Of a stretch of 54,748 nucleotides of DNA, positions 131 through 9,003 are shown one piece after another. Numbering within the stretch: position 1 is the stretch's first letter; every line of letters begins with the position of its first letter. The DNA lies in NCBI GenBank assembly GCA_016840085.1, contig JAEOTA010000072.1, positions 1 through 54,748 on the forward strand, read 5' to 3'. The translations under genes and the position numbers were made by a program. Source of the DNA: Promethearchaeota archaeon (lineage in GTDB: Archaea; Asgardarchaeota; Lokiarchaeia; Sigyniarchaeales; SOKP01). Under the pieces are notes generated by a model. It saw only the letters and a list, made by a program, of their open reading frames with translations, was not told the DNA's origin and searched no databases.

Positions 131-1051
131 ATGGTTAAAGAAAACACTTTTGCTTTCTTTTTAGGATGTTTAATGCCAAATCGATATCCTGCTATTGAAA
201 AATCAACGAAATTTGTAATGGATAAATTAGGATATGAACTCTTAGATATGGAGAGAGCAACCTGTTGCCCAGCTCCAGGAGTATTTCGATCTTTTAATAA
301 AGTTGATTGGATGGTAGCAGCAGCAAGAAATATTTGCATAGCAGAACAATTAGATGCTGATATATTAACTGTTTGCAATGGATGTTTCGGAACTCTCCAA
401 GAGGTTAACAAACACTTGAAAACAAATGAAGAACATCGTGGAATGGTAAATAAAAAATTGAAGCTTATTGGAGATTATGAATTTAAAGGAACGATAGATG
501 TTCGACATATTGCTGAAGTTTTAGGCTTTGAGATAGGTCCATGGGGAATTGAAGATCATATCGTTCGAAAAGTTAATGCTAGAGCTGCTATTCACTATGG
601 GTGTCATTTTTTGAAACCAACAAGGATTAGAGAGATTGAAAGTTCAGAAGGACCAACAATTGTAGAGGAATTTATTGAAGTATTAGGAATAGAATCAGTC
701 AGATTTAAAGAACAACTTACTTGCTGTGGAGCTGGAGGCGGGGTCAAAGCATATGATGGAAACTCAAGTATGATAATATTTGCTGATAAAATGAAAAATA
801 TTGATGAAGTAAAACCCGATTTTATTTTGGATATTTGTCCATTTTGTCATTTACAATATGAAACCGGACAAGATTACCTAAATAAGAATAAAAATTGTAA
901 TTATGATTACCCTGTAATTCATCTTTCTCAATTAACTGCCTATTGTATGGGGATGGATCAAGAATTTATTGGTCTACAATATCAATTAATGGGTAAAGAT
1001 TATATCTTTGGGAGAGAAGAAATAAAAAAGGAAGGAGAGGAGGCAATATAA
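131..1051 (+). CDS. hdrB: Heterodisulfide reductase subunit B (two CCG domains)
   Basis: FLGCLMPNRY, TCCPAPG, CNGC, HYGCH, CCGAGGG and CPFCHLQ motifs of the non-cubane Fe-S sites; GGAGG upstream. Confidence 0.95.
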   Translation: MVKENTFAFFLGCLMPNRYPAIEKSTKFVMDKLGYELLDMERATCCPAPGVFRSFNKVDWMVAAARNICIAEQLDADILTVCNGCFGTLQEVNKHLKTNEEHRGMVNKKLKLIGDYEFKGTIDVRHIAEVLGFEIGPWGIEDHIVRKVNARAAIHYGCHFLKPTRIREIESSEGPTIVEEFIEVLGIESVRFKEQLTCCGAGGGVKAYDGNSSMIIFADKMKNIDEVKPDFILDICPFCHLQYETGQDYLNKNKNCNYDYPVIHLSQLTAYCMGMDQEFIGLQYQLMGKDYIFGREEIKKEGEEAI

Positions 1052-3082
1052 TTGACAGTTAAAAATCAGAAAATAAAAGAAACAGAAGAGGTCGAGGGCA
1101 TGGTAATATCCGAAGATTCTAAAGAACCTAGAATTGGTGTTTTTGTTTGCCATTGCGGTCATAATATAGCTGGAACTGTTGATGTAGCTGAAGTCGCTGA
1201 GCATGCAAAAACTTTACCTAATGTTGTTAAAGCTGAACATTATATGTTTATGTGTTCAAAACCGGGAGTTCAGATGGTTAAAGATTCTATAAAGGAATTA
1301 GGAGTTAATCGAACTGTGGTAGCTTCTTGCTCTAAAAATCAACATGGCAAAACATTTGCTAGAGCAATTGAAGAAGTAGGTTTGAATAAACACCGTCATC
1401 AACAAGTTAACGTGAGAGAATATAATAGTTGGGTTCATAAAAAAGAAAAAGAAAAAGCAACTCAAAAAGCTATGAAGTTGGTTGAAGCAGGAGTGAATCG
1501 AGCTAGAAAATTAGAGGATGTAGAAACAAGAAGAATTCCAACAACAAAAGTGGCATTAGTTATAGGAGCGGGAATTGCTGGACTCCGATCAGCTTATGAC
1601 ATGGCGGAATTAGGAATTCCCGTATATTTAGTGGAAAAAGAATCTACTATTGGAGGTCATATGACTCGATTAAACAAAACCTTCCCAACTTTAGAGTGTC
1701 CACAATGTTCAATATCCCCTCTCACGAATGGAGTAGCTAATCATCCTTTAATAGAACTTTATACTAATGCTCAAGTGAAAAGCGTTGAGGGATCATTAGG
1801 AAACTTTGAAGTTGAGATTGAAGTTAAACCCAGGTATGTTAAAGATAATTGTACTTCTTGTGGCGAATGTGCTGCACATTGTCCTGTCGAATTACCCAGC
1901 GAATGGGATATGGGGATGTCCATGAGGAATGCAATCTATAAAGCATATCCACAAGCAATACCTGCTACTTATGTAAGAGATAAGAAAAATTGTATTGAAT
2001 GCAATACCTGTATTAATATTTGTCCTGTCCAAGCAATTGATTTCTCAATGAAACCAGAAACGAAAACTGTGAAGGTTGGTTCAATTATAGTTGCTGCTGG
2101 ATATGATGAATATGATCCTTCTGAAATTGAACCCTATCATTATGGACAAGAGGGATTCGAAGATGTGATTACACAATTAAAATTAGAACGGATGATGTCT
2201 CCAACATCGCTTACTAATAGTGAGGTTCTACGACCTTCTGATGGAAAAATCCCTAAAAGTGTTGTCATGATCCAATGTGTAGGAAGTCGAAATGATCAAG
2301 TTGGAAATCAATATTGTACTGGTGTATGTTGTAAATTTGCAATAAAAAATGCAAGAATTATTAAAGAAATGTATCCTGATACTGATGTATCAATATGTTA
2401 TATAGATATTCGAACACCAGGATTAAATTTTGAAGAATTATATAAATCTGCCCAAGAGATTGGGGTAAGGTTTATACGAGGAAGGCCATCCGAGATTATA
2501 AAAGATCCAATTTCGGGAGAATTACAAGTAATTGTTGAAGATACATTAAGTCAGACACCTTTAAAACTAAAAGCTGATTTAGTTGTTCTTTCTGCTGCTA
2601 TGGTTCCTCCTGAAGGAATTGGTCCACTTGGTTCTAAACTTCATGTTTTAAGGTCCAAAGAGGGATTTTTAAAAGAGTTTCATATAAAAATGAATCCTAC
2701 TTTAAGTAGTAAGGGAGGGATTTTCTTGGCAGGTGCAATTCAAGGTCCAAAGGATATTTCAGAAACGGTTGCTCATGCTGGTAATGCTGCTGCTTTAGCC
2801 GCAGCTCCTTTAGTGAAAGGATATATCGAAAAAGAAATACTAATTCCTTCGATTGATTATGATTTATGTGTAAATTGTGAACTTTGTAAAACAGTATGCG
2901 CTCCAGCAGCAATAGACATCGATGAAAATGGATCTCCAGTTATAAATGAAATTGCTTGTAAATCTTGTGGTATGTGTATGCCTGTATGTCCTACAGGCGC
3001 GATTCAATTAATAAATTTTAGAGATGATCAACTATTAGATGAAATAATTGCCGTATCTGGCGGAGGTGCTGTTTGCGAATGA
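1052..3082 (+). CDS. hdrA: Heterodisulfide reductase subunit A (FAD, electron-bifurcating type), TTG start
   Basis: GVFVCHCG, GAGIAG, LNKTFPTLECPQC, inserted and C-terminal 2x[4Fe-4S] ferredoxin domains, QCVGSR..YCTGVCC, QGPKDI. Confidence 0.97.
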   Translation: MTVKNQKIKETEEVEGMVISEDSKEPRIGVFVCHCGHNIAGTVDVAEVAEHAKTLPNVVKAEHYMFMCSKPGVQMVKDSIKELGVNRTVVASCSKNQHGKTFARAIEEVGLNKHRHQQVNVREYNSWVHKKEKEKATQKAMKLVEAGVNRARKLEDVETRRIPTTKVALVIGAGIAGLRSAYDMAELGIPVYLVEKESTIGGHMTRLNKTFPTLECPQCSISPLTNGVANHPLIELYTNAQVKSVEGSLGNFEVEIEVKPRYVKDNCTSCGECAAHCPVELPSEWDMGMSMRNAIYKAYPQAIPATYVRDKKNCIECNTCINICPVQAIDFSMKPETKTVKVGSIIVAAGYDEYDPSEIEPYHYGQEGFEDVITQLKLERMMSPTSLTNSEVLRPSDGKIPKSVVMIQCVGSRNDQVGNQYCTGVCCKFAIKNARIIKEMYPDTDVSICYIDIRTPGLNFEELYKSAQEIGVRFIRGRPSEIIKDPISGELQVIVEDTLSQTPLKLKADLVVLSAAMVPPEGIGPLGSKLHVLRSKEGFLKEFHIKMNPTLSSKGGIFLAGAIQGPKDISETVAHAGNAAALAAAPLVKGYIEKEILIPSIDYDLCVNCELCKTVCAPAAIDIDENGSPVINEIACKSCGMCMPVCPTGAIQLINFRDDQLLDEIIAVSGGGAVCE

Positions 3083-3531
3083 GTGTGTGTGAAATCACTG
3101 ACGAATTGATAAAAGAAAAGATTCAAGATGTTGTTGTTTTTATGTGTAACGAATGTGGTCAAGGATCTGCTAATACTGCGGGTGTTGCACGAATGGGATA
3201 TAATCCAGCAATAAGAATAATCAGAGTTCAATGTACAGGTCAAATTGGTCCTATTCAAATTATGGATGCATTAAATAATGGAGCAGATGCTGTTGCTTGC
3301 ATTGGATGCTGTTTAGGAGCTTGCCATTTTTTTAATGGAAATATACTTTCAATGCATAGAATTAAACTGATGAAGAAATTATGCAAAGAGTTAGGATATA
3401 GTGATCAATTTTTAAACCAATATACATCTCGAGCAGCAGAAGGCGAAACCGCTGTAGGTGATTTTGAAGATATTATAGATAGATTATCAACTGCAATTAA
3501 AGATGAGGGAACGATTAAAGATGGATGTTAA
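3079..3531 (+). CDS. mvhD: MvhD/FlpD [2Fe-2S] subunit
   Basis: FMCNEC, IRVQCTG, GCCLGACHFFNGN; likely start is ATG 3079, overlapping the hdrA stop (ATGA). Confidence 0.9.
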   Translation: MSVCEITDELIKEKIQDVVVFMCNECGQGSANTAGVARMGYNPAIRIIRVQCTGQIGPIQIMDALNNGADAVACIGCCLGACHFFNGNILSMHRIKLMKKLCKELGYSDQFLNQYTSRAAEGETAVGDFEDIIDRLSTAIKDEGTIKDGC

Positions 3532-4756
3532 AGTATTTCAATTCAATGGTTGCAATAAATGTTTTAACGAAACGTTACTCCTAAAGTTGGATTCGAATTA
3601 TAAAATACAATTTATAAAAGAACCACAAAATTGGAAAGGAGTAAAAACAGAAGTAGCTGTAATCACTGGATATCTATTACCAGATGATAAAGTACATCTA
3701 GAGAAAATTAAGGTAAACTCAGAACGAGTTATTGCATATGGAGATTGTACAACCATGGGAGGAGTTTTTGCATTAGCAAACCAAAATGGTTATGAAATTA
3801 CACCTTTAAAAGAATTTATTGATTATCAAATAAATGTTAATGGTTGTTTAGGGGAAATTGAAGAATTAAAGTCGGTGATTGACAGAAAAGAACCATCAAA
3901 ACTAAAATCTCTCTGTGAGGTGTGTGCACGCAAGGCAACTTGTGAATATTTAGATGCTGTATACCGTCAGATTGAATCAGATGATAAAGAAACGTGTTAT
4001 AATGATTTAGGATTTCTATGTAATGGATTTATAGCTAAAGAATGTAAAGAACGATGTATCAACTACAACACACCCTGCAGAGGTTGCAAACCAATGGTAG
4101 AAAGATCTGGTATTAGAATGTTAGGAATGTTCGGCACACTTATGGGAAATATTGAAATTGTTACTGAGCACTCTGAAAAGGGCGCAACTGATAAACTTGG
4201 AGATGAAGAAGATGATGTAACAAGAAGTTTACCTGATATTCTTGGTAACTTCTTTAGATTCACACTGCCTACCTCCGGTTTGCCTAAAGGAAGAATAAAA
4301 TCTTCAGGTACAACATTAGAAAATGTTTTTACAGGAAGATTAATTGAAGAATTGCCATTAATTTCTGGATTATTAGGGGGAAGTAAGTCAATTTCATTAA
4401 CACTAAAAATTATTGAATCCTATGAGGAGGCAAATCAAATTGAAATAAGCGAGAGAACAAAGAAATATCGTGAAGAATTATTGAAATTAGAAACAGATCT
4501 TGAGAAAGCGTTGGAAAATGAAGATTCAAAACAGTATAAAGAAATAACTAGTGAAATTCGAAAAATTGCTGGTAATATGAATTTATCTAACATCTTCTTT
4601 GGTGGATTTAAATCCCAAATTAATGAAAATGACAATTTTGATGATTACAAAAGCCACATTTTTGAAGTGGTTGAAGGAACCTATAAGCACGGTTCAGTTG
4701 AATATACAATAGATCCTAATGGTATAGTTAAAGAAATTAAGATTAAAGAGGGATGA
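3521..4756 (+). CDS. MvhG-like hydrogenase small subunit fused to a degenerate, Cys-less MvhA-like N-terminal fragment
   Basis: GCNKC, YGDC..GG, NGC, LCEVC, CYNDLGFLCNG, PCRGC and DILGNFFRFTLP match MvhG; the C-terminal ~150 aa resemble the large-subunit L1 region without cysteines; likely start ATG 3521. Confidence 0.8.
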   Translation: MDVKVFQFNGCNKCFNETLLLKLDSNYKIQFIKEPQNWKGVKTEVAVITGYLLPDDKVHLEKIKVNSERVIAYGDCTTMGGVFALANQNGYEITPLKEFIDYQINVNGCLGEIEELKSVIDRKEPSKLKSLCEVCARKATCEYLDAVYRQIESDDKETCYNDLGFLCNGFIAKECKERCINYNTPCRGCKPMVERSGIRMLGMFGTLMGNIEIVTEHSEKGATDKLGDEEDDVTRSLPDILGNFFRFTLPTSGLPKGRIKSSGTTLENVFTGRLIEELPLISGLLGGSKSISLTLKIIESYEEANQIEISERTKKYREELLKLETDLEKALENEDSKQYKEITSEIRKIAGNMNLSNIFFGGFKSQINENDNFDDYKSHIFEVVEGTYKHGSVEYTIDPNGIVKEIKIKEG

Positions 4757-7230
4757 ATATGAGTTTTGAATTATTGAAAAAAGAAATTATTGACGTTGGA
4801 TTATGCCAAGGTTGTGGATTATGTACCGGTTCCTGTAAGCATATTGAGATGGAAGTATTACGGCCTATATTAAAGGATTATTGTATCCTTGAAAGAGATG
4901 GACAAGATTGTGGCAAATGTTATCAAAGTTGTCCTCAAGTTATCCAGAAAAAGTTTAAACAAAAACAACCTAAAGCAATTTATTCTTTAAGAAGCAAAAA
5001 TCCTGAAATTTTGACTAAAGCTGCTAATGGTGGTGTAGTTACAACCCTAGCTAAAAATCTATTAGATAATCAATCACTTGCTAAAATAATTATGGTTCAA
5101 GATTTCAATGAAAAACCTCAAGCAGACATTGTAACTGACCCTGATGAAGTTGTAAAAAAGGCTGGAGTAGTATACGGACGTTCAGGAGTTTTAGAAAAAT
5201 TAGTAGAAGTTGTTGGAGAAACTTTCGAACCTATAGGAATAGTTGGGGTTCCTTGTGAGATGAGAGGTGCTGCTGAATTGGAGGAAGAAATGAATAGAGA
5301 AATTTTAAAAATTGGTTTATTTTGTAATTCTCAAATGCAAACAGAACAAACTGACAAAGGCATAGTATGTTCTCCTTGCTGTAGTGGTTGTCCATCAGGG
5401 GTAAATGCACAAGGATATATTTCCCTAATTAGACAAGGTCAATATCAAGACGCTGTTGATTTAATCCGTGAAAGTAACCCACTTCCTTCTATATGTGGAA
5501 GAATTTGTACTAATGAATGTGAACATGGTTGTACTTTGATTGGAGATGACCATCCAGTAGCAATCCGAGAACTAAAGAAATTCGTGACTGAATGGGAGAT
5601 AGAACAAGCTAAAAAGAATAGTGCAAAAGGTAAAAGAAATATTAAAAAAGGTGCTAAAAAAGTAGCAATTATAGGTTCTGGACCAGCAGGGTTAACTGCT
5701 GCATATTTTTTAAGAAGAATAGGGTATGCACCAACTATTTTTGAAAAATCAGATCAAACAGGAGGCATGCTAAGATTCGGAGTACCGCAATTTAGATTAC
5801 CAAATTATGTATTAGATTACGATGTACAAAATATTCAAAATTCAGGGGTCGAGATAATTCTAAATAAACCATTAGGACCCGAAATGACGATTGAAGACTT
5901 AAAAAATGATGGATTTGAAGCTATTTTTATCGCTACTGGCCAATATAAACTTCGGACACTTCATTTAGAAGGAGAAGACCTTCCTAATGTTCATGTAGCA
6001 ATTACGTTTCTAATGGATAGAAAATACCGCTATTGGGAAAATAAAGAAGAATTTAAGGGAAAAACTCTGGGGATAATTGGTGGTGGTCCTGTAGCAATTG
6101 ATGTTGCTCAAACAGCTCTTCGATTAGGTGCAACCAAAGTTCATCTTGTTGATATAATGACAGAAGGACAACTTGAACTAGTTTTAAAAGACATTCCAGA
6201 AAATGAAATTGATTATATGCAATATCATTTTACTACGTCAACATCTAGAATTACTCAGAATAATGAAGGAAAACTCATGTTAAATTGTTATAAAATTGAA
6301 TGGGGAACTCCTGATGAAAATGGTAAAAGACCGTTAAATAAGATTGAAGATTCAGATTATGAAATTCCAATTGATTCAATTGTAATTGCTGTTGGTCAAG
6401 CTGTTGATTTTGACCAGATTGATGTTGCTACTGATAATAAATTAGAAAAAGAGCGAAATAAGATTAAAATAAATGAAGTCACTTTTGAAACAAACATACC
6501 TGGAGTATTTGCAGGTGGAGACATAATTAATAATTCAAAAGCAGTAGCAATTGCGGCAATAGCTCATGGAAAAGAAGCTGCTATCTCAATAGATAAATTT
6601 CTAAAAGGAGAGGATTTAATAGCCGGACGATATAAACAAGATAAGATGTTTTTTACTGGACCTAAAAAATCTCCAAAAGATTATTCGCCTAAACCAGGAA
6701 ATTTAGAAGAAGCTACTGAAGAAATTCAGTGGAGTTTTGAAGAGATTGATCAAATGTTTAATGAAGATATGGCATTAAAAGAAGCTCGCCGATGTTTAAG
6801 TTGTAATCATTTTTGCTCTCATTGTCAAGATTTTCCAGCAATTTATTCTGATTTAACTGCTGGTGAAGTTGGTTCTCAAAAAGGATATACAACAGTTGTA
6901 GTTTGGACTGATAAAGGTAAAGAAATCGTAGAGTCAGCAATCAAAAACGGTTTATTTGAAGAAGGAGAAGTGAACGAGGGTGAATTAAACAAAGCAATTA
7001 ACCTAAAGTCAAAACGAGAGCTCTTAACTTTTGAAAAAACTCCAAGACAGCAAATCTTAGATTATATCACCATCCAAGGACAAAGTACTATAAGTGATCT
7101 GGCAAAACAGTTAGATATTGAACCTAAAAAAGTACGATATGAAGCACTTCGACTAGCTCAATTAATGCAAATTGAAATGAAAGTTGATCCTGATATGGAT
7201 GAGCCATTATTTACTTTAATATGTGATTAA
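4753..7230 (+). CDS. Ferredoxin-FrhB/FdhB family protein with an inserted GltD/NfnB-type FAD/NAD(P)H oxidoreductase module and C-terminal wHTH
   Basis: CQGCGLC..C, NGGVVT, VGVPCE, IGLFC (FrhB N-part); PCCSGCP, NPLPSICGRIC, GSGPAG, GGMLRFGVP, GGGPVA, FAGGD, EARRCLSC (GltD); CSHCQDF..DLTAGEVGS..TTVVV.TDKG (FrhB C-part); QQILDYI..TISDLAKQL (HTH). Confidence 0.85.
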   Translation: MNMSFELLKKEIIDVGLCQGCGLCTGSCKHIEMEVLRPILKDYCILERDGQDCGKCYQSCPQVIQKKFKQKQPKAIYSLRSKNPEILTKAANGGVVTTLAKNLLDNQSLAKIIMVQDFNEKPQADIVTDPDEVVKKAGVVYGRSGVLEKLVEVVGETFEPIGIVGVPCEMRGAAELEEEMNREILKIGLFCNSQMQTEQTDKGIVCSPCCSGCPSGVNAQGYISLIRQGQYQDAVDLIRESNPLPSICGRICTNECEHGCTLIGDDHPVAIRELKKFVTEWEIEQAKKNSAKGKRNIKKGAKKVAIIGSGPAGLTAAYFLRRIGYAPTIFEKSDQTGGMLRFGVPQFRLPNYVLDYDVQNIQNSGVEIILNKPLGPEMTIEDLKNDGFEAIFIATGQYKLRTLHLEGEDLPNVHVAITFLMDRKYRYWENKEEFKGKTLGIIGGGPVAIDVAQTALRLGATKVHLVDIMTEGQLELVLKDIPENEIDYMQYHFTTSTSRITQNNEGKLMLNCYKIEWGTPDENGKRPLNKIEDSDYEIPIDSIVIAVGQAVDFDQIDVATDNKLEKERNKIKINEVTFETNIPGVFAGGDIINNSKAVAIAAIAHGKEAAISIDKFLKGEDLIAGRYKQDKMFFTGPKKSPKDYSPKPGNLEEATEEIQWSFEEIDQMFNEDMALKEARRCLSCNHFCSHCQDFPAIYSDLTAGEVGSQKGYTTVVVWTDKGKEIVESAIKNGLFEEGEVNEGELNKAINLKSKRELLTFEKTPRQQILDYITIQGQSTISDLAKQLDIEPKKVRYEALRLAQLMQIEMKVDPDMDEPLFTLICD

Positions 7231-7264: not shown

Positions 7265-7501
7265 ATGAAATTTGATATGGAATTAAATGTCTGCGGATTA
7301 GTATGTCCTGTTCCAGCTTTAAAAACAAAGAAACAACTCATGAAAATGAGACCTGGAACTGTTTTGAAGGTTATAACAGATTACAAACCGGCAAGTGAAT
7401 CTGTTCCACGTGATTTAGCAAAAACGAAACACAAGCATTTAGGAACAGACTTTATAGAAGACGATGAGCAATGGTATATCTATTTTGAAGCAGTGAAGTA
7501 A
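7265..7501 (+). CDS. tusA: TusA/SirA-family sulfur carrier protein
   Basis: LNVCGLVCPVP (CPxP motif), G.VLKVITD..A..SVP; 78 aa. Confidence 0.9.
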   Translation: MKFDMELNVCGLVCPVPALKTKKQLMKMRPGTVLKVITDYKPASESVPRDLAKTKHKHLGTDFIEDDEQWYIYFEAVK

Positions 7502-8232: not shown

Positions 8233-8532
8233 ATGAGGTATATTAATATGTCGATTGTGAAAATAAAAAATAAGAAAGCATTGGAACAGTTACAAGCTAA
8301 ATTAACACTAAGACTAGGGCGAAAAGCTACGCAGATAGAAATACTTGATTATTGTTTAATATTAGCAAATGATAATTTTGAAAAATTGGTGGAATTAGTG
8401 ACCTGCATGCCAATTTTAAGTCTTGAAAAATCTGAGCAAATTATCGAAGCGAGAAATAAACTTAAGAATGTAATTTATGATGAAGAAGCTTCCTTTGGCA
8501 GTAGAGATGATGAAGATATTTATAATGAATAA
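8233..8532 (+). CDS. Putative VapB-type antitoxin
   Basis: Small protein with basic N-terminus and acidic tail (RDDEDIYNE), directly upstream of a PIN gene. Confidence 0.7.
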   Translation: MRYINMSIVKIKNKKALEQLQAKLTLRLGRKATQIEILDYCLILANDNFEKLVELVTCMPILSLEKSEQIIEARNKLKNVIYDEEASFGSRDDEDIYNE

Positions 8533-8541
8533 TTCAGTATA

Positions 8542-9003
8542 ATGGTGAGAATAATGGGGGTTTTTCTTGATACGGGGTTTTACTTGGGGTTGTGTCATCC
8601 TAAAGATCAACATGCACAAGAAAGTGAAAAAATGTTGAAATTGCTTAGTATGGGAGAGCATGGATTATTATATAGTTCCAATCTTATCATTAGTGAAGTC
8701 ACAACTTTAGCAGCTGTGCGTTCCAATAATAATGTCAATGTATTAAACCATCTCGGAAATTTAATATGGGGAAAACAAAAAATTGCCACAGTCTTACATT
8801 TTGAATCGTATTTAGAATCTGAAACTTGGGAATTATTTAAGAAAATAAATACCATCGATTTGAAAGACTCAAGGCCAATGAGTTTTGTTGATGTATCATC
8901 AATTGTTTTATGTCAACACCATCAAATTGATAAAATTGTAAGTTTTGATCCACATTTCGATAGATTTTTGGAAAAAATCAAAATGCTTCGTATTACTGAC
9001 TGA
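8542..9003 (+). CDS. vapC: VapC/PIN-domain toxin
   Basis: VFLDTG, HPKDQH, IISE, MSFVD, IVSFDPHF PIN motifs. Confidence 0.92.
   Translation: MVRIMGVFLDTGFYLGLCHPKDQHAQESEKMLKLLSMGEHGLLYSSNLIISEVTTLAAVRSNNNVNVLNHLGNLIWGKQKIATVLHFESYLESETWELFKKINTIDLKDSRPMSFVDVSSIVLCQHHQIDKIVSFDPHFDRFLEKIKMLRITD

Follow-up and report, generated by a model that had tools for sequence, protein, structure and literature searches.

An FrhB-family flavoprotein with an inserted GltD/NfnB-type module in a hydrogenase-free Hdr operon of Promethearchaeota

The window, a contig of 54,748 nucleotides (JAEOTA010000072.1) from a Promethearchaeota archaeon, encodes an FrhB-family Fe-S flavoprotein, in which a complete GltD/NfnB-type module takes the place of the 57-59 residues that otherwise separate ligands two and three of the FrhB [4Fe-4S] cluster. 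We consider the chances slightly better than even that this fusion serves as the NADH-input subunit in a bifurcating, hydrogenase-free HdrABC-MvhD-MvhG' complex, which acts on TusA/DsrE-bound sulfur in Loki-type Asgard archaea. The features of the locus are listed in Table 1.

Table 1. Genes and protein segments of the hdr operon in the window (aa, amino acids; residues are those of the fusion protein)
Feature	Position	Strand	Basis
hdrC, 3' end, gene cut by contig start	3..128	+	matches HdrC C-terminus in L070
hdrB, 306 aa, two CCG domains	131..1051	+	Pfam CCG, E 1.6e-35
hdrA, about 660-676 aa, Cys form, no in-frame TGA	1052..3082	+	Pfam FAD and Fer4 domains
mvhD, [2Fe-2S] FlpD domain	3073..3531	+	Pfam FlpD, E 1.5e-30
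mvhG', mvhG-like [NiFe]-hydrogenase small-subunit homolog, 417 aa	3503..4756	+	Pfam Oxidored_q6
frhB::gltD fusion, 825 aa	4753-7230	+	stop-free translation
N-terminal 2x[4Fe-4S] ferredoxin domain, residues 1-70	4753..4962	+	eight invariant Cys
FrhB N-part, residues 71-191, FAD motifs, cluster ligands C168 and C191	4963..5325	+	Pfam FrhB_FdhB_N
Inserted GltD/NfnB-type module, residues 192-687	5326..6813	+	Pfam Fer4_20, Pyr_redox_2
Second dinucleotide fold, GGGPVA (443-448) to beta2 end LVDIM (465-469)	6079..6159	+	GGGxVA invariant
Permuted segment, residues 660-685 (WSFEEIDQMFNEDMALKEARRCLSCN)	6730..6807	+	homologous to N-terminus of canonical NfnB
FrhB C-part, residues 688-763: C688xxC691 cluster ligands, GE705VGS loop, conserved basic helix	6814..7041	+	ungapped alignment to 3zfs_C
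C-terminal winged helix-turn-helix, residues 764-825	7042..7227	+	AF2 model, Foldseek
tusA-like sulfur carrier gene, 78 aa, CPxP motif	7265..7501	+	Pfam TusA, E 6e-19

Architecture and authenticity of the fusion protein

The database start of the fusion protein is an ATG located 6 nt downstream, which gives 823 aa. The search for the predicted domain architecture matched all four Pfam families: FrhB_FdhB_N (residues 77-148; 48 bits versus a cut-off of 22); Fer4_20 (residues 192-285; 83 bits); Pyr_redox_2 (residues 302-606; 90 bits); and FrhB_FdhB_C, in two stretches, the best of which (residues 670-741; 69 bits versus a cut-off of 23) covers profile positions 79-148 of 150. The landmarks of the split given in the original prediction were exact: IGLFC (residues 187-191) ends at nt 5325, and C688SHCQDF opens the FrhB C-part at nt 6814. 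The interval from C191 to C688 comprises 496 residues, and 490-496 in the rest of the fusion family, as opposed to 57-59 in ordinary FrhB paralogs, of which four from this genome were compared.

The eight invariant cysteines of the ferredoxin domain in the family alignment are C18, C21, C24, C28, C44, C53, C56, and C60; FwdI (8rja_E), CODH-zeta (8riu_B), and Fsr (7np8) have ferredoxin domains at their N-termini that align with this one. The motifs NGGVVTT, AGVVY, and VGVPC are retained in the FrhB N-part, as judged from alignments to the FrhB family. C168 and C191, also invariant in the fusion family, are the counterparts of Cys104 and Cys134 in FrhB of M. marburgensis (PMC3591093). Since NGGVVTT and AGVVY are kept and the FAD motifs of the GltD module are invariant across the family, two FAD sites are plausible, in agreement with the two-flavin protein originally proposed. 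A separate, linear GltD-Fd-FrhB fusion also exists (P0149).

The GltD module consists of the Fer4_20 clusters, the FAD domain, the NAD(P)H domain, a linker, and the permuted segment EARRC681LSC684. A PDB sequence search with this module retrieved 9n5u_A (E 2e-84), with further matches to 9bov_A, 8oh5_C, and 4ylf_B. By sequence, the insert is a circularly permuted form of the StnC/NfnA type. Residues 660-685 matched residues 20-45 of the organism's own NfnB (L004) in BLASTP (50% identity, 81% positives, E 1e-9), while the Fer4_20 match lacks the first profile positions and begins at position 13-30. The permuted insert starts with C209x3C213P and finishes with RC681xxC684, so both chain ends should meet at one cluster. 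The FrhB cluster ligands C688xxC691 follow only three residues later; C209, C213, C681, C684, C688, and C691 are all invariant in the family alignment.

AF2 modelled the full-length protein with mediocre confidence (pLDDT 69, and below 50 in the Fe-S regions; pTM 0.46). In this model, the two FrhB halves come together into one predicted FrhB fold, as anticipated: FrhB chains 9r51_B and 6qgr_B superpose on both halves with Z scores of 21.2-21.6 over 226-235 residues (model residues 68-766). VIA-align gave Z scores of 26-27.7 between the GltD insert and NfnA, StnC, and NfnB (27.7 for 9bov_A; 27.6 for 4ylf_B).

This architecture is found in more than 120 protein clusters (90% identity; 817-825 aa) from NCBI, JGI, ENA, and Logan, and in about 70 species genomes, all of Promethearchaeota, including the complete genome of Ca. 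Lokiarchaeum ossiferum (closed chromosome CP104013). The junction residues are invariant in the family alignment. These observations refute an assembly or gene-calling chimera of frhB and gltD, to which we assign practically no probability. The architecture is unusual and the window is a MAG contig; nothing else speaks for a chimera.

Cofactor sites and the C-terminal winged helix

A nucleotide preference other than NADPH had been predicted from the replacement of YRR by VDIM, and this replacement was confirmed. VDIM occupies residues 466-469; the canonical NfnB of the same genome reads AYRRSE where the fusion protein reads LVDIMTE. LVDI is kept in at least 90% of A2 in the alignment. In our census, position 467 was Asp or Glu in 121 of 122 family members, whereas YRR was present in about 120 of the 145 other GltD+linker modules. 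An acidic residue and two hydrophobic residues replace YRR family-wide. By the established rule for the end of beta2 in Rossmann folds, an acidic residue speaks against binding of the 2'-phosphate and for NADH. Because of this substitution, we infer that the GltD module prefers NADH over NADPH. The NADP-like GxGxxA is retained and the EMPA that usually follows YRR is also altered; the site could therefore lack nucleotide binding or bind something else.

The segment replaced by the insert corresponds to FrhB residues 135-191, which contain the sheet 148-172 and the turn 163-IGKGK. In FrhB, this three-stranded sheet with the IGKGK turn adjoins F420 (PMC3591093). An ungapped alignment to residues 191-247 of 3zfs_C places C688 and C691 on Cys192 and Cys195 and E705 on Ser209. 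Position 705 is Glu or Asp in every family member examined: the search pattern fitted 112 sequences, all of them acidic here, and 7 of the remaining 16, inspected by eye, are acidic as well. All solved F420-reactive homologs possess Ser or Cys at the Ser209 position. I749, K752, and R755 of the FrhB C-part are invariant. F420 binding had been described as retained, altered or lost; the loss of the IGKGK sheet and the exchange of the F420-facing Ser209 for Glu/Asp narrow this to a site that appears at least remodelled. Use of F420 by the fusion protein is uncertain.

The predicted terminal winged helix is real at the fold level, according to an AF2 model of residues 745-825 (pLDDT 81; H-H-H-beta-beta topology). 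Its Foldseek matches were MarR/ArsR regulators and the Zalpha domain of PKZ (59-60 columns at an rmsd of 1.1-1.3 A), the latter also retrieved by a profile search against PDB (E 2e-4). None of the winged-helix or DNA-binding families in Pfam scored above cut-off; HVO_A0114 was detected below threshold in 27 of 36 members.

Operon context and related systems

The reading from nt 3, ELPPTAFKFKQEGDD...EEEEA*, represents the hdrC tail, which tblastn located in 49 related loci, immediately before hdrB. HdrB exceeded the cut-off of NCBIfam TIGR03288 (CoB_CoM_SS_B; 360.5 versus 345 bits), while hdrA, preceded by a TAA stop, scored 740 and 631 bits with the HdrA2 and HdrA models, under their equivalog cut-offs. 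PDB sequence matches of mvhG' (residues 99-268) are MvhG 5odc_E and 9sw2_E. No [NiFe] large-subunit gene was present in the operon in the ORF and Pfam survey. The mvhG' stop overlaps the ATG of the fusion gene as ATGA, which suggests translational coupling.

The overall gene order is tusA-dsrE-dsrE-dsrH-dsrE2-hdrC-hdrB-hdrA-mvhD-mvhG'-frhB::gltD-tusA. From hdrC to the last tusA, the order is unchanged in all related loci with sufficient flank, including those of Ca. Lokiarchaeum ossiferum and Sigynarchaeum, and the upstream tusA-dsrE-dsrE-dsrH-dsrE2 array occurs in 38 loci. This array was not found in the source genome, whose contig begins inside hdrC and which gave no match to a DsrE2 query. 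Of the 65 related loci with a tusA copy (70-98% identity), most have it immediately after the fusion gene; in L076 it is located about 4.4 kb further downstream.

The best matches to residues 193-687 are the GltD-like domain of StnC from Sporomusa ovata StnABC (8OH5) and NfnA of Bfu-type NfnABC (9BOV, 9N5U/9N5V), with E values of 2e-84 to 5e-76 and Z scores of 26-27.7. They share the permuted order, from PCx3CP to EAxRCxxC, and the embedding of a GltD module in a larger Fe-S protein as the pyridine-nucleotide site. However, they carry VYRR, of the NADPH type, in the alignment, are joined end to end with NuoG/Fdh-like domains rather than inserted into an FrhB fold, and have HydB/HydC-like partners instead of Hdr. 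Also comparable are FrhB-family F420 (de)hydrogenase modules: FrhB (4OMF/3ZFS, 6QGR, 9R51), Fsr (7NP8), and, from Ca. Ethanoperedens, FwdI (8RJA_E) and CODH zeta (8RIU_B). Like the fusion, they combine an N-terminal 2x[4Fe-4S] domain with a downstream FrhB fold and have a basic C-terminal helix, FAD motifs, and four Cys ligands. Such modules act as plug-in electron inputs or outputs on larger Fe-S enzymes (PMC11493965), as the fusion probably does. The latter differs in having a 496-residue flavoprotein in place of the 57-residue three-stranded sheet and IGKGK segment, Glu for Ser209, and an added winged-helix tail. GltD inserted into HdrA (P0143, P0137, P0155, P0258) also lies within an Fe-S flavoprotein of an Hdr complex, as a proposed NAD(P)H mid-potential donor entry, but the host is HdrA, the examples found have YRR or LCLE rather than the acidic residue, and such forms are described with mvhADG association.

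As in MvhAGD-HdrABC of methanogens (5ODC), hdrC/B/A, mvhD, and an mvhG homolog occur together, with an HdrB that passes TIGR03288; in contrast, the operon lacks the [NiFe] large-subunit gene, FrhB::GltD replaces the hydrogenase input, and TusA/DsrE genes are on the flanks. The Loki-type Asgard archaea with this operon are not known to make CoM/CoB. Clustering of Hdr-type genes with TusA and DsrE-family carriers is shared with sulfur-oxidising sHdr systems, which use TusA/DsrE sulfur transferases (PMC11094781), and with the Hdr-TusA/DsrE persulfide model of the asgardarchaeon Nerearchaeum (bioRxiv 10.1101/2025.07.22.663070). This neighbourhood points to protein-bound sulfane sulfur as a substrate. 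However, sHdr is devoid of MvhD/MvhG and uses lipoate-binding proteins, and the Nerearchaeum model, in which Hdr is coupled to a 3c hydrogenase, makes no mention of an FrhB::GltD subunit.

Alternative readings and proposed function

Alternatively, the FrhB FAD could still handle F420 and the GltD module NAD(H), with an Fe-S chain linking both pools so that either feeds HdrA. The genome encodes F420 biosynthesis (CofH, CofD, and CofE exceed their cut-offs), and the family conserves the four cluster ligands together with the FAD motifs of FrhB. Behind the FrhB C-part lies an invariant basic helix, AINLKSKRE; in FrhB, the C-terminal helix has a similar start, which is conserved, positively charged, and located at the F420 entrance (PMC3591093, PMC10229431). 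A natural deletion variant of 381 aa, found full-length five times, each on a separate contig (NCBI, JGI, and Logan), keeps FrhB and the winged helix without the flavin/NAD domains, which implies a substrate of its own for the FrhB part. The FrhB site may, therefore, still use F420; the linear fusion P0149 also fits such a dual input. However, the sheet beside F420 is missing, also in the deletion variant, which has no IGKGK loop, and the small residue at the F420 density has become acidic. This makes dual input or transhydrogenation possible but doubtful.

A second bifurcation site, at the GltD FAD, had also been suggested and is very unlikely, despite the homology of the module to NfnB with its bifurcating FAD (4ylf_B). 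NfnB requires a second exit via the [2Fe-2S] cluster and FAD of NfnA, but no NfnA-like gene occurs in the operon across about 60 loci, and the genome's only NfnA adjoins the canonical NfnB elsewhere. In addition, the module is of the permuted StnC/NfnA class and of GltS/DPD-like wiring, in which both electrons leave via the two clusters. Less likely still is a redox-sensing transcription factor, whose winged helix binds DNA and whose flavin/Fe-S body senses NADH/NAD+ or F420 and regulates the operon. The winged helix is canonical in fold and conserved, KKVRYEALRL forms a basic recognition helix, and nucleic-acid binders are the best fold matches. Yet the gene comes last in a tightly packed enzyme operon, with the ATGA overlap, as is typical of a stoichiometric subunit. 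A sensor would hardly need two flavin domains and five clusters, winged helices also act in protein docking, and the Pfam DNA-binding families all stayed under threshold.

In the favoured NADH-input role, NADH, not NADPH, would give a hydride to the GltD FAD, and single electrons would run via both GltD clusters to that of FrhB, with the FrhB FAD as its side station. HdrA would drive one electron uphill to ferredoxin and pass the other downhill via HdrC/HdrB to a disulfide or persulfide on TusA/DsrE proteins, whose genes lie on both sides of the operon; gene neighbourhood alone suggests this sulfur as the HdrB substrate. The old F420 pocket would be remodelled and perhaps no longer the main substrate site, and the winged helix may be a docking or regulatory appendage. 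Since its gene closes the enzyme series of a conserved Hdr operon that lacks a hydrogenase and has sulfur-carrier genes on its flanks, the fusion probably delivers electrons from NADH to a sulfur-reducing complex that splits them.

Domain organization of the FrhB::GltD fusion protein

The window comprises contig C68 in its entirety; the source assembly is 4.7 Mb in size and 98.8% complete, with a G+C content of ~30%. The fusion gene encodes 825 aa, and a GltD/NfnB-type module (referred to as the insert, residues 192–687) separates the two parts of an FrhB-like domain. All four Pfam domains that follow from the original prediction were found, FrhB_FdhB_C in two stretches and without profile positions ~40–78. 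PF04422 and PF04432 both scored above their gathering thresholds, which places the protein in the FrhB/FdhB family. Two CxxCxxCxxxC-type motifs lie within the N-terminal 70 residues. The predicted cofactor set of the protein consists of five [4Fe-4S] clusters and two FAD.

Features of the operon and domains of the fusion protein. Gene positions are nucleotides of the window; domain positions are residues of the 825-aa product
Feature	Position	Remarks
hdrC, 3' part	3–128	window starts inside the gene
hdrB	131–1051	above TIGR03288 cut-off
hdrA	1052–3082	same frame as hdrB
mvhD		after hdrA
mvhG' (MvhG-like small subunit)		417 aa; after mvhD
Fusion gene	4753–7230 (+)	overlaps the mvhG' stop as ATGA
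FrhB_FdhB_N	residues 77–148	Pfam 48.3 bits, cut-off 22
Fer4_20	residues 192–285	Pfam 83 bits
Pyr_redox_2	residues 302–606	Pfam 90 bits
FrhB_FdhB_C	two stretches, the larger at residues 670–741 (profile 79–148 of 150)	Pfam 68.9 bits, cut-off 23.3
tusA	7265–7501	78 aa; 35 nt downstream of the fusion gene

The FrhB N-part had been proposed to end with IGLFC at about nt 5325 and the C-part to resume with CSHCQDF at about nt 6813. IGLFC ends exactly at nt 5325, and CSHCQDF starts at nt 6814. The spacing between LFC and CxxC, taken from motif positions, is 496 residues in the fusion protein and 490–496 in its relatives, as compared to 57–59 residues in four ordinary FrhB paralogs of the same genome; a module of ~490 aa in place of a short segment had been expected. 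Cysteines C168 (VPC), C191 (LFC), C688, and C691 (CxxCxD) do not vary across 27 sequences. In HMMER alignments to FrhB of M. marburgensis (3zfs_C), C688/C691 correspond to Cys192/Cys195 and C168/C191 to the VPC/LFC cysteines. Since the [4Fe-4S] cluster of the latter protein is ligated by Cys104/134/192/195 (Mills et al., PMC3591093), the insert is located exactly between the second and the third ligand of the FrhB cluster. These correspondences were drawn from motif positions and HMMER-to-PDB alignments, because a MAFFT alignment with the ordinary FrhB paralogs (A3) left the 490-residue gap closed and put the C-parts out of register.

The full-length AF2 model, built with 27 close homologs, is of medium quality (pLDDT 69, pTM 0.46, below 50 in the Fe-S regions), and its use was restricted to rigid domain superposition. 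Within a single superposition, solved FrhB chains cover both halves of the FrhB domain in this medium-confidence model: 9r51_B aligns over 226 of 282 residues (Z 21.6, rmsd 4.2 Å, model range 69–762) and 6qgr_B over 235 residues (Z 21.2). In this model, the two halves thus come together as one FrhB fold.

For the insert, the matching folds are those of NfnA from NfnABC (9bov_A, Z 27.7), NfnB (4ylf_B, Z 27.6), GltD (2vdc_G, Z 27.5), and StnC. The presence of Fer4_20 and Pyr_redox_2, together with the matching fold, assigns it to the GltD/NfnB/DPD-N family. Scores of the fusion protein against NCBIfam models for NfnB and the NADPH-dependent glutamate synthase small subunit were below their equivalog cut-offs: 282.7 for TIGR01316 (471.75), 236.9 for TIGR01318 (482.95), and 384.6 for NF009410 (516). 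Canonical NfnB and GltD proteins begin with one continuous run, EAxRCxxC-x4-C-x3-CP. This run is broken up in the fusion protein, with Cx3CP at residues 209–214 and EARRCLSC at residues 677–684. The Fer4_20 match lacks the first 13–30 profile positions, the module opening at C209-x3-C213-P, and the residues at its end (660–685, WSFEEIDQMFNEDMALKEARRCLSCN) match residues 20–45 of the genome's own NfnB (identity 50%, positives 81%, E 1e-9). C209, C213, C681, and C684 are unvarying in the 27-sequence alignment.

Judged by this order of motifs, the insert is a circularly permuted GltD module, and StnC and NfnA display the same permuted order. Both chain termini of the module would meet at a single [4Fe-4S] cluster, which would explain how a unit of 496 residues fits into a loop; it is this joining of the ends that would have made the insertion possible. 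In the sequence, the end cluster would be three residues away from the FrhB ligands C688/C691, so that the wire would be continuous. The fusion protein is a clear natural case of domain insertion enabled by circular permutation, with a natural deletion variant as control.

The C-terminal residues 745–825 are conserved across 36 sequences. Their AF2 model (pLDDT 81) consists of three helices followed by a beta hairpin, i.e. a winged helix-turn-helix (wHTH) fold, and matches PKZ Zalpha (rmsd 1.1–1.3 Å) and the MarR/ArsR regulators. The wHTH profile retrieved PKZ Zalpha from the PDB with an E-value of 2e-4, and all Pfam wHTH matches were below cut-off (the best being HVO_A0114, 21.8 versus 27.6). 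The terminal wHTH of the original prediction is therefore borne out at the level of the fold; it may bind DNA or act in docking.

Nucleotide and F420 sites

The second Rossmann motif (GGGPVA, residues 443–448) is followed by VDIM at residues 466–469, as first read from the sequence. The end of beta2 reads LVDIMTE in the fusion protein versus AYRRSE in the canonical NfnB of the same genome. This replacement of YRR is a family trait: position 467 is Asp or Glu in 121 of 122 family members, and HLVDIM was seen 100 times. Among 145 other GltD modules with linker, ~120 have YRR, ~15 have xCLE, and just three, all unrelated, are acidic. YRR also occurs in HdrA-inserted GltD modules and in HdrC-GltD-HdrB proteins encoded by other Asgard genomes. 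Where beta2 of a Rossmann fold ends in an acidic residue, this residue binds the hydroxyls of the adenine ribose and shuts out the 2'-phosphate, which is bound by an Arg pair in NADPH-dependent proteins. The acidic residue 467 thus argues for NADH rather than NADPH as the nucleotide of the fusion protein. Alternatively, nucleotide binding may have been altered or lost; the GxGxxA fingerprint is kept, and EMPA following the YRR position is also changed.

A 920-aa paralog (L002:718–3480 (-), equal to G000:C24 ~124440–127202) combines an HdrC-like Fer4 dicluster, a GltD module, and two HdrB-like CCG domains. Between the GltD part of this paralog and the insert, identity is 55%, and LVDILTE is shared. 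Proteins of this architecture from other Asgard genomes (P0129, L079–L081) are only 41–43% identical and carry IYRR. This pattern points to a module that was exchanged or duplicated between the paralog and the fusion protein in this lineage.

In FrhB, F420 adjoins Ser209/Val210 and the 163-IGKGK turn of the three-stranded sheet 148–172, and the F420 access channel is formed by this sheet and the start of the C-terminal helix (PMC3591093). The sheet with the IGKGK turn is absent from the fusion protein, the whole LFC–CxxC segment being swapped for the GltD module. Ser209, a small residue facing the F420 ring, aligns with Glu705, a position occupied by Asp or Glu in all 112 pattern-matched family sequences and in the 7 of the 16 others that were inspected by eye; at this site, F420-reactive homologs with a solved structure read GSVGS, GSIGS, or GCVGS. 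Several features, however, count against outright loss of F420 use. The FrhB part retains its FAD motifs, the basic helix AINLKSKRE is invariant, and CofH, CofD, and CofE of the genome score above cut-offs. The same is indicated by P0126, a natural internal-deletion derivative of 381 aa, in which FrhB and the wHTH are kept and the FAD/NAD domains are missing. Five full-length copies of this variant (P0126, P0273, P0279, P0280, and P0281) were found, each on a contig of its own; the contigs are from NCBI, JGI, and Logan, and those with a name belong to Promethearchaeota MAGs. It keeps remnants of the insert, namely the equivalent of residues 259–292 (Fer4_20) and RCxSC, and is therefore derived, not ancestral. 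Taking these sequence features together, we regard F420 use by the fusion protein as possible, if rather doubtful.

A second bifurcation site at the GltD flavin, which was also part of the original prediction, is unlikely because an NfnA-like partner is not encoded in the operon and the canonical NfnAB pair is located elsewhere. Neither the operon of the window nor the related loci encode an NfnA-type protein ([2Fe-2S] + FAD); NfnA was found only beside the canonical NfnB (L004). An unlikely further scenario is that a single Fe-S wire connects two functional hydride sites, the GltD flavin reacting with NADH and the remodelled FrhB flavin with F420 or a different carrier. In that case, the Asgard Hdr complex would connect the pools of NAD, F420, and ferredoxin to a sulfur relay of protein persulfides, and DNA binding by the wHTH might depend on the redox state of the enzyme. 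If true, this would be a multi-donor bifurcating enzyme of a hitherto undescribed type.

Distribution and gene neighbourhood

A word-indexed search retrieved >120 clusters (90% identity) with the same Pfam set each; they are 73–100% identical to the query and 817–825 aa in length, except for two shorter or partial entries. The named members come from MAGs of Promethearchaeota/Lokiarchaeota and other Asgard archaea. When 1.84 billion representatives were scanned exhaustively with HMMER, the full architecture was found in just two more 50% clusters, P0122 (57% identity) and P0123 (46%), plus fragments; the piece 206–693 by itself occurs in thousands of multidomain proteins. With one genome scanned per species, the fusion was found in ~70 genomes, all of Promethearchaeota, the closest relative being MAG ABR05 (93% identity). 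Among these genomes are those of Ca. Lokiarchaeum ossiferum (closed chromosome; 56%) and Sigynarchaeum (53%), and the junction residues of the fusion are invariant. An assembly chimera, the caveat attached to the original prediction, is thereby ruled out.

No FrhB::GltD insertion was found outside Asgard archaea among the top 150 representatives; the sole other combination was linear. This protein, P0149 (855 aa, a 13-member cluster from ENA/JGI), consists of a permuted GltD module, a ferredoxin domain, and an intact FrhB-like domain; it has an unusual beta2 end (VFSILSRRE) and a divergent FrhB loop. A GltD module inserted into HdrA was described in a 2025 paper, and a literature search that covered non-subscription papers returned no description of the insertion into FrhB.

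The genes from hdrC to tusA abut or overlap in the window. A selenocysteine codon at the in-frame hdrB/hdrA junction was considered and rejected, as the stop is TAA. The order hdrB-hdrA-mvhD-mvhG'-fusion is retained in all related loci with enough flank, the downstream tusA is 70–98% identical in 65 loci, and tusA-dsrE-dsrE-dsrH-dsrE2-hdrC lies upstream in 38 loci. The upstream context is known from relatives, since the contig begins inside hdrC and a DsrE2 query gave no match in the window's own assembly. Pfam detected no [NiFe] large-subunit domain (MvhA) in the operon genes of the window, and the gene order is the same in ~60 loci.

Several further observations concern this region. The MvhG-like protein carries a Cys-free C-terminal extension of ~150 residues (window 4310–4756, residues ~270–417) that matches no Pfam family and no PDB sequence. 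In one locus (L025:10518–13332), the downstream tusA has been duplicated (two full copies and one partial), and in another (L076:14898–15131) it lies ~4.4 kb further downstream, so that the spot 3' of the operon seems prone to insertions. In the window, positions 8233–9003 contain a small ORF (99 aa, no Pfam match) and, after it, the gene of a PIN-domain protein (153 aa, E 5.6e-5); the two look like a VapBC-type toxin–antitoxin pair just downstream of the operon. The hdrC frame of a close relative (L070:2830–3375) has no ATG, GTG, or TTG between the upstream stop and codon 3043, and the homologous protein starts ~70 codons earlier, which points to a start codon of a non-canonical type. A candidate regulator of the operon in Ca. 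Lokiarchaeum ossiferum is a 176-aa AsnC/HTH_24 protein encoded between dsrE2 and hdrC (L067:2269–2799).

Proposed electron path and its implications

In the path that we propose, NADH would reduce the FAD of the GltD module, and the FrhB cluster, with the FrhB FAD beside it, would receive the electrons via both clusters of the GltD module. They would continue through the N-terminal ferredoxin domain to MvhG', MvhD, and the HdrA flavin, where one branch would lead to ferredoxin and the other to a sulfur substrate that is brought by TusA/DsrE and bound to HdrBC. Hdr-dependent reduction of TusA/DsrE-bound persulfides, coupled to a 3c hydrogenase, has been proposed for another Asgard archaeon, Nerearchaeum, in a preprint (bioRxiv 10.1101/2025.07.22.663070).

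In Loki-type Asgard archaea, Hdr and Mvh genes are routinely taken to encode an Mvh/Hdr complex that depends on hydrogen, and this reading also enters the metabolic models behind hydrogen/sulfur syntrophy scenarios of eukaryogenesis. Instead of a hydrogenase large subunit, the conserved operon encodes a dedicated flavoprotein with a fingerprint pointing to NADH, and genes for TusA/DsrE sulfur carriers flank the operon on both sides. The ortholog in the cultured Ca. Lokiarchaeum ossiferum makes the idea testable. If true, the Hdr complex of these archaea would tie NADH oxidation, ferredoxin reduction, and sulfur reduction together without H2.
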